Below are positions 45,778 to 64,000 of a stretch of 64,000 nucleotides of DNA, one piece after another (position 1 is the stretch's first letter; each line of letters starts with the position of its first letter). The stretch is from positions 1 to 64,000 of the IMG/VR virus record IMGVR_UViG_3300047275_000752, one strand, 5' to 3'. Under the pieces are notes generated by a model. It was given only the letters and a program-made list of their open reading frames with translations. It searched no databases and was not told the origin of the DNA. Source of the stretch: a virus (lineage: Duplodnaviria; Caudoviricetes). A program made the translations under genes and the position numbers.

Positions 45778-48700
45778 ATGACCGAATTCAATCAGTTCGC
45801 CCCATCTGCCCATGCTGTCTTTTATCGCTCGTATTCGCGACGCAAAGAAGATGGTTCCAGGGAAAACTTTGCGGAATCAATAACCCGGACGATTAATGCT
45901 ATTGCGAAAGTTGGTAAATTTACCTCTTCGCAAACTGCTTTAGCACTTGAAATGGCGTTAAAGCAACACTGCTTTCCTAGTGGACGAGCACTTTGGGTGG
46001 CTGGTACTGAATGGTCAGAAAAACCTGATAATTTTCCTGGTTATTATAACTGCTGTTCCATGCATGTTGATGAGCCCTCAATGTTTGGGTTGCTCATGGA
46101 GCTAGCGATGATGGGCACAGGTACTGGCGCAGTCCTTGAATCGGATGTCGTAGCAAAGCTGCCAGCAATTACCAGGGCTATCAACATCATTGATATAATT
46201 GATAACCAAGGCGTCGAAGGTGGTAAAGCTGATACTGTAATCACCTATGAAGAAGAAGATCAAATTATTTACCTGACAGTTGGCGATTCTCGCCAAGGCT
46301 GGGCTTCTGCTTATCAGGGCTTGATTGAACTGGCAATGGGCAATCTGGCTGATGGCGAATCTGCTGCAGATGATATAAACATTATCCTCGATTTATCTGA
46401 AATCCGTCAAGCCGGACAATTACTGAAAGGATTTGGTGGTACTGCAAATCCAGTCAGACTGCAAGAAACCTTCGAGAGGGCGGCCAGGATCCTGCTTAAA
46501 GCAAAAGGTCGTAAGCTAACAGCAATTGAATGCTGTCTATTGATCGACGAGGCGGCCAGCGCCGTTGTCGCCGGCAACATTCGTCGTTGTTTACCAGGCA
46601 ATGCCCTCGTTCACACTGAACTAGGTCTTGTGCCAATTCGTGATATCAAGATTGGCACAATGGTGCAAACCTCGAAGGGATTGCGCCCTGTTGTCGACTT
46701 TTTTGATCAAGGCAAGCAGGTTATTTACGAAATCAAAACACAAGACGGAAGCCTGTTTTGCTCGAAAGAGCATAAAGTAGCTGTACTGCGCGATATTTAT
46801 GGTGCGTATGAAATGGTCAAGGCAATTGACCTTAAGGCCGGTGATCGAATGGTTGGTAACCATTTGATTGTCGCTGGTCACAGTACCAGCTTACCGGTTG
46901 CTGCTAATACGAAAGCAAATTCACGCAAGCCTCGCAAGCCAATAACTATTCCAAAACTAGATAAAGAAGTTGCCTATTTCCTTGGTTATTTACACGGTAA
47001 TGGCAATGTTAAATCAGACGGTAGCGGTATTCGTATAACTGGACCCAGTGGTTTTGAGGCTATTGCCACCAGATGTTCTAGTGTGCTTCAGCGATTTGGG
47101 TTTGATTCACGTCTTGTCAGCAAAAGCGATGCCTCGGCGTGGGAATTGACAGCGAATGGATCTGAATTAAATGCTTACTTCCGTAATTTTAAGCAAGTAT
47201 TTTCGCAACCAATTATCCCTGATTGCATTCTCCAAGGGACAGAAGAAATCCGCTGGCATTACCTGGGAGGCCTGATGGATTCCGATGGTTCACCTGGTAC
47301 TCATGTCCTGTTGAATTCTGTGTATCCGGAATTCAGTCATCAAATTCAAGCTATTTATAGCTCTCTTGGAGTTCCGACTCGCATCGAAAAGCGTCTCCGT
47401 AAAAATAATCATGAATGCGAGCTGAATGCAGTCGGTCTGCATAAGCAGAAGATCTATCAAGTATTTTCAAGCATTTGCACTCGTTATCCCTGTCTTGCAA
47501 CTAAACCATCTGACACCAGCAGGAATCAGCATGGGTTCGATAAAGAAATGGTGAAAGCCAGCATCAAAGGCATCAACTGGAGCCAATGCCAGGCCCAGAA
47601 GAGTTGTGTGTCGCTTGCTGCAATCGAACCAGCAATGACTGATCTTATTCCAATTACAGTAATTGATGTACAACCTACATCGCGTATCGAAGATACATTC
47701 GATATTGAGGTCAAAGATATCCACGAATTTTATTGCAATGGCTATCTTGTTTCGAATTCAGCGGGCATGCGTCAATTTACGTCAAGCGACGAAGAGGCAG
47801 CTTCTGCCAAGGATGGTCTGTATAAGCAAGACGAGAGCGGAAACTGGAGCGTTGATCCTGAGAAAGAAGCACTCAGGATGGCTAATCATACTAGATGCTT
47901 CCACACTAAGCCGGATCACGAAACAATTAAAGCTTCTATTGAGAAGCAGTTTTGGTCTGGTGAGGGCGCAATTATGTATGTGCCCGAATCTATTGCCAGG
48001 GCCAATGCCGACCTGCTAAATACCAAGCAGTTAAAGCAGCGGTTCCTGGGGCTGTATACACGCAGTCAAGATGACGCTCGTCAGATGTTGGTGGAGCTAG
48101 CAGAAAAGGCTGGTGAGCCGACTGATGATCGCATCATTCAGCATCGGATGGATCGGTATGGGCTTAACCCCTGCTTTGCGCCAGGCACTATTGTGATGAC
48201 CAGTGAAGGCTACTTCCCAATTGAATCACTGGTTGGCAAAACTGTTGAGATTCATGATGGGAATGAGTGGCGTACTATTGACAACTTCCGAGTTACAGCG
48301 CATGACCAAGATGTATACGATGTAACCTTGCATGACGGAACTGTCATTACAGCGACTGAATACCATAAATTTATCCTGAAGGATGGCACCAGGGTAGAAC
48401 TGAAGGATCTAAAGCAGGGCGACGAGTTAATGGCAGCCACTATCGAGCCCGTGACGGGAACTATTCAGGCACATGCCGCCTACCTTAAAGGATTTCTAAT
48501 TGGCGACGGAACGTCTGACAAGGGTCAGCGAGCAGCCTGTAAGTTGTATTCTCCCAAGAAAGTATGCGTCGACCGTCTGAGGGCTTCTAGGAACGAGCTG
48601 GGGTATTTTGAAGGTGAAACACTAACTCCGGCCGGGTATTTGCGTGGTTTAAATACCGCCAATGAAGACATGACTCCGTGGTCATCTACATACAAGCATG

Positions 48701-50280
48701 TATTTCCTCACGAAGTACTGAATTGGACGACTGAGGCCAAAGGCGAGTTTATTGCCGGATTGTTTGACGCAGACGGCACTCTTCGTGACACTAAAGAGAA
48801 CGGCTTTTCTTATCAGATCACTAGCGTTAGTCTTGAATTTCTGCGCGGTCTAGTGACCTTGTTGCGAACGGTTGGAATCGGGGCAAAAATTGGCCCTCCG
48901 CGACAAGGTGGCCTTAAAAACTTTGGCGCCGATCGGGGTGGCGTTTGCGTGGTCCAGCCTACTTATCGTCTCGCTATTTCACAGTTCAATTCAATTAAAC
49001 TAGCTAAAATCGCAAAATTTGAAAGATTAAAAAGTGTTGCTGACAAAGAAATTGTTTATATCAAAAAACTCGGTTATAACAAAGTAAAAGAAATTACTTA
49101 TTCTCATTGCGCACCCGAGGTTTATTGTTGCACTGTTCCCGTAACGAACTCTTTTACACTTGGTTCGTCGATAGTTGTTGCGAATTGCGGAGAGATAATC
49201 ATGCGAGACAATCTTTGCAATCTTTCGGAGGTTCACCTGAATACACTGGATCCAGTCAACAAGGAACTGCAACACCAGGTATTCTATGCCGGCGGCCTGC
49301 AAGTCGCTGCACTGCTGCAACATAAATTTGTCCCCGAACGCCTTGCTTATAGCCGTGAGAACGATCCAATTGTTGGCGTCAGTTTTACTGGCCTGTTTGA
49401 CTTTTTTGTTCATGCTTTTGGTGCCTCTTGGCTGAAATGGATGATGAAAGGCAGGCCCAGTGGTTCTGCATACAAAAAGTACACTGCCAAGGAAAAAGCC
49501 TTCTTGGAATCATGGAGGATCAGCGCGGAGCAAGGTGTTAAGGATTACTGTGCTCAACACGAGATTCGTCTCCCTAATCGATTCACCACTGTGCAGCCAG
49601 CAGGCTCCAAGAGCTTGCTGACAGGCGCATCATCTGGCTGGCATCCTCCAAAGGCTCAGCGATTCATTCGTCGAATCACGTTTGGGGTCAACGATCCACT
49701 GGTTAGCGCTCTCAGGGATTATGGTTACAGTGTTATCCCAGCACAAAGCGCGAGGGACGAGGAGGGCAACCTGCTTGATGATATTACAGATCCTAGGGTT
49801 CGCGAAGTCTTGGTGGAAATTCCAACTGAAGTATCTTGGGCGAATCTCCCTGGATGTGATGAGTTTGACTTGAGCAAGCTACCTGTCACTGCTCAGTGGG
49901 GACTGTATATGCAAGTCCAAAAATATTATACAACGCATAACACATCGGCCACTCTGGAATTTCGTGAAAATGAAATAGATGAATTGACTAGTCTAATTTA
50001 TCAAGACATCCAGTCCGATGGTGGCTATATATCGGCAGCACTACTTGCTCGATTCGATGCCAATGAAACTTTCCCGAGGTTGCCGTTTGAGCCAATTGAC
50101 AAACAAACTTTCGATCGTAGAATGGCTGTAGTTAAATTAGTCCGGGATAGCCTGCCGGAGGGCACCACAATGCTTGATTTGCTTTCAAGATATGACAATC
50201 CTGGCTACGAGTTAAAAGGGGCTGCTGGCTGTGACTCAGACAAATGCCTTGCCGAGGAAAAAGTGCCATTCAGTAAATAG
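45778..50280 (+). CDS. nrdJ: class II (B12-dependent) ribonucleotide reductase containing two inteins
   Basis: FPSGRALWVAG, AGNIRR|SAG, NP|CGEI, TTVQPAGSKSLL, HNTSAT; about 772 aa after splicing. Confidence 0.93.
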   Translation: MTEFNQFAPSAHAVFYRSYSRRKEDGSRENFAESITRTINAIAKVGKFTSSQTALALEMALKQHCFPSGRALWVAGTEWSEKPDNFPGYYNCCSMHVDEPSMFGLLMELAMMGTGTGAVLESDVVAKLPAITRAINIIDIIDNQGVEGGKADTVITYEEEDQIIYLTVGDSRQGWASAYQGLIELAMGNLADGESAADDINIILDLSEIRQAGQLLKGFGGTANPVRLQETFERAARILLKAKGRKLTAIECCLLIDEAASAVVAGNIRRCLPGNALVHTELGLVPIRDIKIGTMVQTSKGLRPVVDFFDQGKQVIYEIKTQDGSLFCSKEHKVAVLRDIYGAYEMVKAIDLKAGDRMVGNHLIVAGHSTSLPVAANTKANSRKPRKPITIPKLDKEVAYFLGYLHGNGNVKSDGSGIRITGPSGFEAIATRCSSVLQRFGFDSRLVSKSDASAWELTANGSELNAYFRNFKQVFSQPIIPDCILQGTEEIRWHYLGGLMDSDGSPGTHVLLNSVYPEFSHQIQAIYSSLGVPTRIEKRLRKNNHECELNAVGLHKQKIYQVFSSICTRYPCLATKPSDTSRNQHGFDKEMVKASIKGINWSQCQAQKSCVSLAAIEPAMTDLIPITVIDVQPTSRIEDTFDIEVKDIHEFYCNGYLVSNSAGMRQFTSSDEEAASAKDGLYKQDESGNWSVDPEKEALRMANHTRCFHTKPDHETIKASIEKQFWSGEGAIMYVPESIARANADLLNTKQLKQRFLGLYTRSQDDARQMLVELAEKAGEPTDDRIIQHRMDRYGLNPCFAPGTIVMTSEGYFPIESLVGKTVEIHDGNEWRTIDNFRVTAHDQDVYDVTLHDGTVITATEYHKFILKDGTRVELKDLKQGDELMAATIEPVTGTIQAHAAYLKGFLIGDGTSDKGQRAACKLYSPKKVCVDRLRASRNELGYFEGETLTPAGYLRGLNTANEDMTPWSSTYKHVFPHEVLNWTTEAKGEFIAGLFDADGTLRDTKENGFSYQITSVSLEFLRGLVTLLRTVGIGAKIGPPRQGGLKNFGADRGGVCVVQPTYRLAISQFNSIKLAKIAKFERLKSVADKEIVYIKKLGYNKVKEITYSHCAPEVYCCTVPVTNSFTLGSSIVVANCGEIIMRDNLCNLSEVHLNTLDPVNKELQHQVFYAGGLQVAALLQHKFVPERLAYSRENDPIVGVSFTGLFDFFVHAFGASWLKWMMKGRPSGSAYKKYTAKEKAFLESWRISAEQGVKDYCAQHEIRLPNRFTTVQPAGSKSLLTGASSGWHPPKAQRFIRRITFGVNDPLVSALRDYGYSVIPAQSARDEEGNLLDDITDPRVREVLVEIPTEVSWANLPGCDEFDLSKLPVTAQWGLYMQVQKYYTTHNTSATLEFRENEIDELTSLIYQDIQSDGGYISAALLARFDANETFPRLPFEPIDKQTFDRRMAVVKLVRDSLPEGTTMLDLLSRYDNPGYELKGAAGCDSDKCLAEEKVPFSK
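46588..47757 (+). mobile_element. intein 1 with LAGLIDADG homing endonuclease (390 aa)
   Basis: N-term CLPGNALVHT; YFLGYLHGNG and YLGGLMDSDG; C-term FYCNGYLVSN followed by Ser. Confidence 0.92.
48172..49185 (+). mobile_element. intein 2 with LAGLIDADG homing endonuclease (338 aa)
   Basis: N-term CFAPGTIVMT; YLKGFLIGDG and FIAGLFDADG; C-term SIVVAN followed by the catalytic Cys of NPCGE. Confidence 0.92.
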
Positions 50281-59768: not shown

Positions 59769-60119
59769 ATGGCGTGCAGTACTACTCAAGAAGCAAGGCA
59801 GCGCAAGAAGAGCGCCAACATTAAAAACAGACAAAAATATCGAGACATGATAAATGACTTCAAGGATAAACCTTGCGCCATTTGCCATAAAAGCCACCAT
59901 GCTATTGCTATGGACTTGCATCACATAGATCCATCCACTAAGGATCAGGACATTTCTAAGATGTTAAGATCAAAAGGATATGAAAAAATTCAGCAAGAGT
60001 TAAACAAATGCGTAGTATTGTGTGCTATTTGTCACAGGTTATTGCACGCCGGTCTCGTTGATCTAGATGTCACGAACGGGGGTCGAACCCGTACAGGCGC
60101 AATGCCCGACGCATTTTAA
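59769..60119 (+). CDS. HNH endonuclease
   Basis: CAIC..DLHHIDP..ELNKCVVLCAICHRLLH; 3' end overlaps tRNA-Leu on the opposite strand. Confidence 0.75.
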   Translation: MACSTTQEARQRKKSANIKNRQKYRDMINDFKDKPCAICHKSHHAIAMDLHHIDPSTKDQDISKMLRSKGYEKIQQELNKCVVLCAICHRLLHAGLVDLDVTNGGRTRTGAMPDAF

Positions 60120-60152
60120 GTGCGTTCTGTCTACCAATTCCAGCACCGTGAC
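60068..60152 (-). tRNA. tRNA-Leu (anticodon TAA), intronless, no encoded CCA
   Basis: GTCACGG acceptor, GGAATTGGTAGAC D arm, ACGCA-CTTAAAA-TGCGT anticodon arm, long variable arm, GTTCGACCC T arm. Confidence 0.93.
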
Positions 60153-60153
60153 T

Positions 60154-60229
60154 TGGTGCTCCCTGCGTGGATCGAACACGCCTGAGCCGAATTATGAGTT
60201 CGGAGCATTCACCAGATTGCTAAGGGAGC
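60154..60229 (-). tRNA. tRNA with CAT anticodon (probably Ile2/lysidine type, otherwise Met), CCA encoded
   Basis: GCTCCCT/AGGGAGC acceptor with C4:G69 and C5:G68; CCGAA-CTCATAA-TTCGG anticodon arm; GTTCGATCC; ends ACCA. Confidence 0.9.
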
Positions 60230-62386: not shown

Positions 62387-63148
62387 ATGAAAACCAACAA
62401 AACCAAAGTGATAGCAGTTCTTGCGTTTGGAGCTGGTGCCGTGGCTTATACCGCTGCATCGATAAAAAACGAAACAATCAGACAACAAGAAGCCAGGTAT
62501 CAGCAAATGGTTCTTTTGGCAATGCAAACAGATAACCCAAGCCCGATTCAGCAAGTTGACTCATTGGGGCCAGGTAATCTGGTACCGCTTGAGCAATTAC
62601 CAGTTGATGCTACTCCAACACCAGGATATACGAGCCAACCAGGCTCAGCTCCGAAGAAGATTATTTACAAGCCAACAGCTCCGGCAGTACCAGTCAAGCC
62701 GGTATTCTCGATTATCGTTGAACGTACTAACGAAAAACTAGATCAGACTGGCGACCCGATTTGGAAAGTAGCCCTAGTCGACAATTCTGGCAAAGAACTG
62801 GATGCCCTTAAAGCCTTATCTGGCAGAGCCTCAAAACAAAAGGCAAATCGTAATCAAGGGGGCAATAAATCTCCTTTACCTGGCGGTATCTACGCCATTG
62901 ATGTTAGCGGCATTGAGCGCGGGCCTTTTGGCGACCCCGAACTTGGTCATGGATATTGGGTGCCTATTTCACCGCTTTTTAACACAGGACGTTCTGCTCT
63001 TGGATTTCACCAAGACCCATCATGGGGCAAGGTAAATGGAGAATCTGGCACTTCTGGTTGCGTTGGCCTAGAAAGTCCAGAAGCGACATCAAAACTGGTT
63101 AACTGGATCAGAACTTATCAGGTCAACAAAGTAATTGTCGCTTCCTGA
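62387..63148 (+). CDS. secreted L,D-transpeptidase (YkuD-like) domain protein
   Basis: signal/anchor, Pro-rich linker, SPLPGGIYAI and GFHQDPSWGKVNGESGTSGCVGL (His...S-G-C motif). Confidence 0.7.
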   Translation: MKTNKTKVIAVLAFGAGAVAYTAASIKNETIRQQEARYQQMVLLAMQTDNPSPIQQVDSLGPGNLVPLEQLPVDATPTPGYTSQPGSAPKKIIYKPTAPAVPVKPVFSIIVERTNEKLDQTGDPIWKVALVDNSGKELDALKALSGRASKQKANRNQGGNKSPLPGGIYAIDVSGIERGPFGDPELGHGYWVPISPLFNTGRSALGFHQDPSWGKVNGESGTSGCVGLESPEATSKLVNWIRTYQVNKVIVAS

Positions 63149-63166: not shown

Positions 63167-63197
63167 CCTGGGGGCGACCAACCCCCAGGATTTTTTT
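63167..63197. terminator. bidirectional intrinsic terminator
   Basis: CCTGGGGG-N7-CCCCCAGG with T7 on the plus strand and an A-rich tract (U-rich on minus) at 63146-63166. Confidence 0.8.
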
Positions 63198-64000
63198 GTG
63201 GGTCCCATCCCCACTAGATCCGTCAATGAGGTTAACGAATGCAACCCTCCCGTACTACCGGAAGAACGTACCCAAGTGATTACGGTCAGAGGGCACTCGG
63301 GAAGACCTCAGGCATCTTGCCGTATCGAACGGCATTTCTATGCTATGTGCATAGCGTGTTCCTTACACTAAGATGCAGGGACCCCTCGGTTTGAGCATCA
63401 TTCCTGGAACCATTTTGTCGGCGCCAACAAAATCGTTCCTATTTGGAAGCTAAGCTTGAGGGGTATTCTTACGTGTTGCCAAGCCGCAAGGCTTGACTCG
63501 CTTCAGGGCTTTACACATAAGGGTGGTAGCAGGAGGTGGGGAGCGACATGTGTATCACCCCACTCTTTCACTTCATCTAGCCGTATGGACCGACCAGCGA
63601 GAGGTGTTACACATCCTGCTAATGTTGCGGGGGTGATCAATCCCCCGGCCTGGTTACCCAGGACTTAGCCCGATACGACGACCGGAGATTTCCAGTCCTT
63701 GCAGAGCGGGGGTTGGTGCCGGTTTCCATTTATACCACCCAGAACTACGGAAACCGGTCAAATGGCATCCTGGGATAACCTCGTTCTCCCTTGGGGGCAC
63801 CCGTAGGCGTCCGGGACGGTGATTGCCGACCGCAACTTGCACAGGGAAGGATAACCCTCACCAACGGAGGATCCCAGAACCTGGCAAACCATACCGACAG
63901 AGCAGTATGGGAATTTAGGATGACCCAGGTGTGCCCTTTTGGGGCAGGGACCTGGACTCTATCCATATCTGCGTGGAAAGCTTTATCCAAAGGACTAAGA
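63198..64000 (-). ncRNA. candidate large structured ncRNA (5' end may lie outside the window)
   Basis: no credible ORF; at least 13 stems including long-range ones; five stems have G-U pairs only on the minus strand; embedded tRNA-like element. Confidence 0.7.
63310..63377 (-). ncRNA. degenerate tRNA-like cloverleaf with a CAU anticodon position
   Basis: TGCATCT-TA-GTGT-AAGGA-ACAC-G-CTATG-CACATAG-CATAG-AAA-TGCCG-TTCGATA-CGGCA-AGATGCC-T. Confidence 0.7.

Follow-up and report, generated by a model that had tools for sequence, protein, structure and literature searches.

The structured non-coding region that closes the window (the whole stretch of 64,000 bases that was analysed, which covers bases 1-64000 of the virus record G000, 72,398 bases in length; positions above 64000 continue the same numbering) consists of a string of small RNA modules, about 15 in number, that are gained, lost and sometimes reordered among related phages. 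We hold this description with high confidence. One of the modules, J, is by its sequence and predicted fold an abiF antitoxin RNA carrying a 57-nt insert, and another, B, is a candidate second antitoxin for the same family of toxins. Since B and J are toxin-less copies of RNAs that precede two clades of AbiF genes, the phage probably makes antidotes. We therefore favor a reading, to which we assign a probability of about 0.65 with respect to the decoy function of J and B, in which at least some RNAs of the polycistronic string would serve to decoy the defence RNases of the host.

The phage itself is, as judged from its proteins, an S-CBS2-like Synechococcus siphovirus, with a major capsid protein 68-72% identical to those of the Synechococcus siphoviruses S-CBS2 and S-CRES1-3. 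Freshwater metagenomes from about a dozen studies contain the stretch. The structured non-coding region lies on the minus strand and runs from about 64122 to the terminator at 63189-63167, so that it extends beyond the end of the window. Reading along this strand, a metallophosphoesterase gene is followed by tRNA-Arg(UCU), an extended -10 box, the structured region and a bidirectional terminator (Table 1). The 5' end near 64122, behind the box and the tRNA, was reached by extending past 64000 as the first-pass annotation had proposed, and the same kind of box stands at the head of most homologous arrays. The terminator that had been placed at the end of the region indeed scored on both strands. 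Two same-strand tRNAs noted earlier are also present, a tRNA-Leu(UAA) and a CAU tRNA at 60068-60229 (minus strand), 3 kb downstream of the array; they lie beyond the terminator and thus form a separate unit. Elsewhere in the window, positions 45778-50280 on the plus strand encode a class II ribonucleotide reductase that contains an intein and a LAGLIDADG domain.

Table 1. Features of the RNA array and its surroundings, in minus-strand order.
Feature	Position	Strand	Description
Metallophosphoesterase gene	64237-64806	-	Upstream of tRNA-Arg(UCU)
tRNA-Arg(UCU)	64138-64213	-	Directly before structured region
Extended -10 promoter-like box	64135-64127	-	Consensus match only
Module A	64020-64122 (beyond window)	-	Four hairpins, tRNA-type T-arm
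Module X1	63967-64018 (whole); 63967-64000 (3' part inside window)	-	Hairpin loosely like B
Module B	63916-63966	-	Outside Rfam; host counterparts precede clade-2 AbiF (Abi_2) genes
Module C	63884-63912	-	8-bp hairpin, six-base loop nearly invariant
Module D	63840-63884	-	Bulged hairpin; 7 distinct copies
Module E	63772-63839	-	Copies in L002, L005, L082, L096, L108, L150
Module L	63715-63769	-	Stem with conserved purine-rich top; 4 distinct copies, one in a tRNA array
Module F	63667-63711	-	Contains nested GAAA hairpin (W)
Module G	63624-63666	-	Two hairpins; 34 pattern matches
Module M	63523-63622	-	Three-way junction; homologs in L082 and in other phages' tRNA arrays
Module N	63468-63521	-	Stem, invariant 16-nt loop segment, hairpin
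Module J	63380-63465	-	abiF (RF03085)-type, 57-nt apical insert, self-complementary tip 63412-63433
Module T	63311-63376	-	tRNA-shaped; tRNA-Met by ARAGORN; no RF00005 match in Rfam
Hairpin H and module O	63198-63305	-	O also in L085, L205
Bidirectional intrinsic terminator	63167-63189		Scores on both strands; shared with convergent YkuD-like gene
YkuD-like gene	62387-63148	+	Convergent with array, faces terminator

The first-pass annotation had described the gene-free part of this region as a candidate giant structured RNA, possibly of the GOLLD or ROOL type. Much of the underlying observation stands. The eight hairpins and five two-arm helices that had been listed all pair on the minus strand, each of the two repeated octamers is present twice, and the tRNA-like element is confirmed as module T. 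The folding z-score against dinucleotide shuffles was -4.95 for the minus strand and -2.16 for the plus strand (20 shuffles each). There is no credible protein gene: only one long ORF is present on the minus strand (64128-63745, 127 codons), and in L082, the nearest full homolog, it is interrupted by a stop at codon 29. Among homologs, two-sided changes occur in the stems of modules A, B, C, G, J and N. The region is therefore structured, non-coding, on the minus strand, tRNA-associated and cyanophage-borne as described, but it is a string of modules and not a single ornate RNA. The three proposed long-range helices fared similarly. All of them pair, but those at 63527-34/63614-21 and 63381-87/63458-64 are merely the closing stems of modules M and J, while the third, 63768-76/63871-79, competes with the local stem of module D by reusing its bases, and the D stem persists in phages without the distal arm. 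Membership in GOLLD or ROOL was not borne out, as Rfam returned only tRNAs at gathering as well as E-value thresholds, a targeted search for GOLLD (RF02032) found nothing at E 10, and none of the models for ROOL, OLE, HEARO, tmRNA, RNase P or group I/II introns matched.

The modular build was apparent from the comparison of homologous loci, which we collected via the two flanking genes and by motif scans. Motif mapping, with a background of 0-4 matches per motif in shuffled sequence, resolved 52 distinct module architectures among the homologous regions. Pairs of modules stood in the same order as in the window in 263 cases and were reversed in 30. No part was common to all arrays, and some consisted of only two or three modules. 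Single modules were found on their own behind a promoter, as for module T in L011, or between tRNA genes, and other cyanophages have tRNA arrays in which J in particular is flanked by true tRNA genes. Contigs from other samples skip whole modules, for example by joining across 63936-64019, which represents strain-level loss in DNA runs. The predicted fold follows the same boundaries. All 127 base pairs with a probability above 0.8 in the window RNA lie within modules, no pair between modules reaches 0.8, and the native module order (-373.7 kcal/mol) is no better than shuffled orders (-378.4 +/- 4.0 kcal/mol). Modularity, pairing inside modules and an energy that does not depend on order together largely refute one co-folded ornate RNA. 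Searches with the array by blastn gave matches at chance level only in phage and plasmid records, BLAST against 401 genomes of the cyanobacterial phylum gave two chance matches in one coding gene, and no array was seen in the cultured relatives S-CBS2, S-CRES2 and S-CBS4.

Module J resembles the abiF RNA (RF03085, also AbiFr or RCd22), the antitoxin of the AbiF/Abi_2 HEPN RNases (PDB 8VZ6), in its basal architecture: the two share the basal stem, a one-base 5' bulge, a short second stem, a 3' bulge and the flanks. The window copy, which has the 57-nt insert in place of an 11-nt loop, gave no match to RF03085 at E 10. The module that occupies the J slot in L085 has the short 11-nt loop and scored 51.8 bits (cut-off 37). 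Across about 40 copies of J both flanks are common, and the main difference is an apical insert of 11, 22-23, 57-58 or 72-73 nt. The P1 helix is 96% paired across 38 copies, and the first pair of P2 forms in all 38, as A-U in 16, U-A in 20 and G-C in 2. A blastn search with the L085 copy led to a hairpin just upstream of a Phyllobacterium Abi-family gene; the product of this gene is closely related to PbAbiF (8VZ6, E 2e-53). J differs from the abiF RNAs of hosts in its apical loop, in its setting among unrelated modules and in the missing toxin gene. It does not stand 5' of an Abi_2 gene, since PF07751 is absent from G000; no Abi_2 was found in G000 or in four further array-bearing phage records, one of them a short fragment.

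The abiF RNA neutralises AbiF in trans as well as in cis, and two RNA motifs are bound by the AbiF homodimer (10.1101/2025.04.15.648962). The bases that inhibit AbiF lie in a single-stranded bulge, and AbiF processes its own ncRNA (PMC12737573). This inhibitory bulge presumably corresponds to the 3' bulge retained by J. In all ten aligned inserts of 57-58 nt the four bases at the tip are self-complementary, although their sequence varies (GCGC, ACGT or ATAT). The predicted energy gain upon dimerisation was -19.9 kcal/mol for J as compared to -2.8 to -9.7 kcal/mol for the other modules, which suggests that J RNAs could dimerise via the tip. Such a dimer would present two motifs to the AbiF dimer. 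The arms of the tip contain G-U pairs, which speaks for pairing at the RNA level. Switching between palindromes has served as support for intermolecular bridges in OLE and GOLLD (PMC12286853). In L090 and L111 an unrelated insert of 72-73 nt also ends in a 12-base palindrome, which is imperfect in other copies.

We built a covariance model of module B from 14 phage copies and no host sequence. In its alignment 98.9% of cells are paired, 6 of the 13 pairs show two-sided changes, and none of 500 shuffles was as good in pairing and covariation score. The host-family set consisted of genomes from one cyanobacterial family (1.3-4.0 Mb, with loci at 59-65% GC), inferred to be picocyanobacteria. Abi_2 genes occur in 17 of 261 genomes of this presumed host family and fall into three clades. 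Upstream of three clade-2 Abi_2 genes the phage-only B model reached scores of 49.9-54 bits, and it found nothing at the other Abi loci tested; in 101 host-family genomes it matched at one place only, the leader of a clade-2 Abi_2 gene. A B-type RNA thus precedes all three clade-2 loci. A J-type RNA with the stem, bulge and flanks of the phage copies precedes 10 of 10 clade-1 loci, likewise with an inserted apical helix, and the three clade-3 loci (L253, L254, L270) have their own abiF variant with a different 3' bulge, of which no copy was recognised in the window. Clade-1 and clade-2 toxins are about 24-29% identical in most comparisons. The three host copies of B are near-identical, and their toxins are 88-98% alike, so that these copies count as about one independent event.

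One of the B-bearing loci, G117, is a host toxin-antitoxin island (ParE, RHH, HTH_3). Neither B nor the G117 locus matched RF03085. B differs from the abiF RNA in architecture but occupies the equivalent place at another AbiF clade, and it is this position alone that makes B, toxin-less in the phage, a candidate second AbiF antitoxin. In phage arrays no other module comes first after the promoter box as often as B. B would define an AbiF-associated RNA family absent from Rfam, which bears on a toxin-antitoxin system ancestral to Cas13. Among the plasmid Abi genes at L196-L202, several divergent family members are preceded by a promoter, a bulged hairpin and a U-tract, all negative for RF03085; these leaders suggest further uncatalogued AbiF RNAs.

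The remaining modules have their own conserved features. Module A is represented by 8 distinct copies, three of its helices showing two-sided changes, module C by 13 distinct helices with 4 pairs changed on both sides, and module N by 5 copies that are 100% paired, with two-sided changes at 6 pairs. The first helix of G is 97% paired with 3 two-sided changes. Module E precedes G in the window and follows it in L002 and L096, and X1 is absent from L082 and from one strain in run X10. The internal loop of F matches a small one in the apical part of J-type abiF RNAs from hosts. X1, C and F are at most tentative candidates for further abiF paralogs, as their common feature is a small asymmetric loop only and no host copies were found; X1 was not matched by the B covariance model. 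Patterns for F, G, C and N gave matches in coding regions without the stems in 101 host-family genomes, and since pattern and BLAST searches are insensitive to diverged stems, absence of host copies is not established by this result. In module T, position 33 is an A in the window copy and the other copies compared, the D-loop is short and CCA is not encoded. For these reasons T is unlikely to decode. It is probably a punctuation mark for RNase P, a nuclease decoy, or both.

The position of J relative to tRNAs is consistent with processing. The end of J lies at most 8 nt from the 5' end of a tRNA or tRNA-like element in 41 of 47 contexts, and in the window J is followed by T. In the tRNA cluster of cyanophage S-CREM1 an abiF RNA lies four bases before tRNA-Gly. 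The published account annotates abiF, wcaG and manA RNAs in that cluster, without assigning them a decoy role there (PMC9964418). This abiF is the canonical short form, in a T4-like phage, and in the 3.5 kb of S-CREM1 examined none of the other modules of the window was detected. A near-identical copy of the S-CREM1 abiF-tRNA-Gly unit, the sole match in a scan of genome contigs, was found on L157, a contig of a GTDB Acidimicrobiaceae MAG, which is probably a cyanophage contig misbinned into an actinobacterial genome. As to expression, one 152-nt contig identical to 63735-63886 was present in a single, unstranded metatranscriptome. The flanking genes were without cover in RNA run X20, although expression cannot be ranked from contigs.

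We propose the following sequence of steps. Host RNA polymerase would transcribe the string from the extended -10 box, and RNase P would cut at the 5' end of module T, leaving an RNA that ends in J with its 3' end freed. As infection depletes the host's own antitoxin RNA, the phage RNAs would substitute for it: J would bind clade-1 AbiF via the conserved 3' bulge and B would bind clade-2 AbiF, so that both HEPN RNases are held off. Pairing of J tips would join two J RNAs, matching an AbiF homodimer with its two bound RNA motifs. The remaining modules are plausibly further decoys. That most of the roughly 15 modules mimic RNAs of different host RNA-controlled defence systems, many of them undescribed, is a bolder extension that we regard as tentative and rather doubtful. 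If it were true, phage arrays could be read backwards to find RNA antitoxins, as was done for module B, and J would have evolved into a self-dimerising decoy directed at the AbiF homodimer.

Other explanations have to be weighed against a decoy function. The string could be an operon of small stable RNAs with no part in counter-defence, one that took up B and J from host leaders and now uses them as signals for processing or protein binding, or even as triggers of AbiF. T4 species I and II are non-tRNA structured stable RNAs of this kind, co-transcribed with phage tRNAs; the array has far more modules, these are shuffled between phages, and two have a host counterpart. Several observations would fit such an operon. 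Most modules lack a link to a host or a toxin, and S-CREM1 has an array of this kind with wcaG and manA, for which a role in defence is not known; in addition, AbiF is rare in the host family and processes the ncRNA that belongs to it. We nevertheless consider it unlikely, because two RNAs from two AbiF clades were captured and kept across different phage groups, their stems covary while their bulges are invariant, and the five phage records checked carry no toxin gene. A role of the sequences as DNA, as repeats or operators, is favored by perfect DNA palindromes of 16-28 bp at some J tips. The stem changes, however, are two-sided and tolerant of G-U pairs, the strand is fixed, and promoter, terminator and homology to a known RNA family all point to RNA, leaving this explanation hardly credible.

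Two further explanations invoke a larger RNA. A single scaffold RNA with optional domains could assemble through palindromic kissing loops into a higher-order particle like those of OLE, ROOL and GOLLD. The palindrome switching at the J tip is the kind of signature that has been taken as support for intermolecular bridges in OLE and GOLLD, most module pairs keep their order, and modules A to J could remain on one RNA of about 750 nt. However, such a tip is found in J only and there in the long forms only, and arrays of two or three modules, or single modules between real tRNA genes, are difficult to reconcile with a scaffold, so that we judge it quite improbable. An ornate RNA of the GOLLD/ROOL type with a conserved long-range fold is already largely refuted and very improbable. 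An RNA-only nanocage is one criterion for GOLLD and ROOL. GOLLD is further defined by a universally conserved 3' region with a long-range multistem fold (PMC12286853). The array shares with these RNAs a size of about 800 nt, phage origin, proximity to tRNAs and a palindromic loop that possibly bridges molecules, and its folding z-score also speaks for this view, but it matches neither RF02032 nor ROOL at E 10, it has no conserved 3' domain or other universal part, and it shows no long-range fold, with all confident pairs inside modules and a native order no better than shuffled ones. The case calls for caution, as long structured intergenic regions of phages may be strings of small RNAs and not GOLLD-like giants.

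The decoy function that we favor for J and B has a precedent in pseudo-ToxI of phage PhiTE, which imitates a type III RNA antitoxin and is carried by the phage without a toxin (PMC3475682). As there, the array contains toxin-less phage copies of host RNAs that stand in antitoxin position, the decoy function being predicted here. Pseudo-ToxI reportedly repeats a single unit in tandem, acts against ToxN and was expanded in escape mutants. The array, unlike this, holds single copies of at least two different RNAs for two AbiF clades among about 13 other modules, and it is conserved in wild phages. The best-known case of antitoxin RNA mimicry is one laboratory example, PhiTE; if B and J act as proposed, the RNA antidotes of wild cyanophages form a shuffled panel in which each AbiF clade has its own decoy. 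A literature search, with most subscription journals outside its reach, found no report of such arrays.

Some further observations concern the arrays of related phages. An additional module, found 33 times in related phages only (L002:5095-5195, L006, L013, L082, L090, L205) and not in the window, has the shape of a tRNA or tmRNA end domain, with an acceptor-like stem, a D-like hairpin, a variable insert and a T-arm; no Rfam model matched it at gathering score. A permuted tmRNA called by ARAGORN at a relaxed threshold was rejected, as the calls were inconsistent between homologs. Modules also nest: T's anticodon-like hairpin and W, the GAAA hairpin, occur as apical inserts of other modules, in module B in L109, L117 and L125, and also in L002, L102, L115 and L127. 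Near the arrays of L007, L008, L010, L011 and L002, glutamine riboswitch aptamers (RF01739) lie on the opposite strand.
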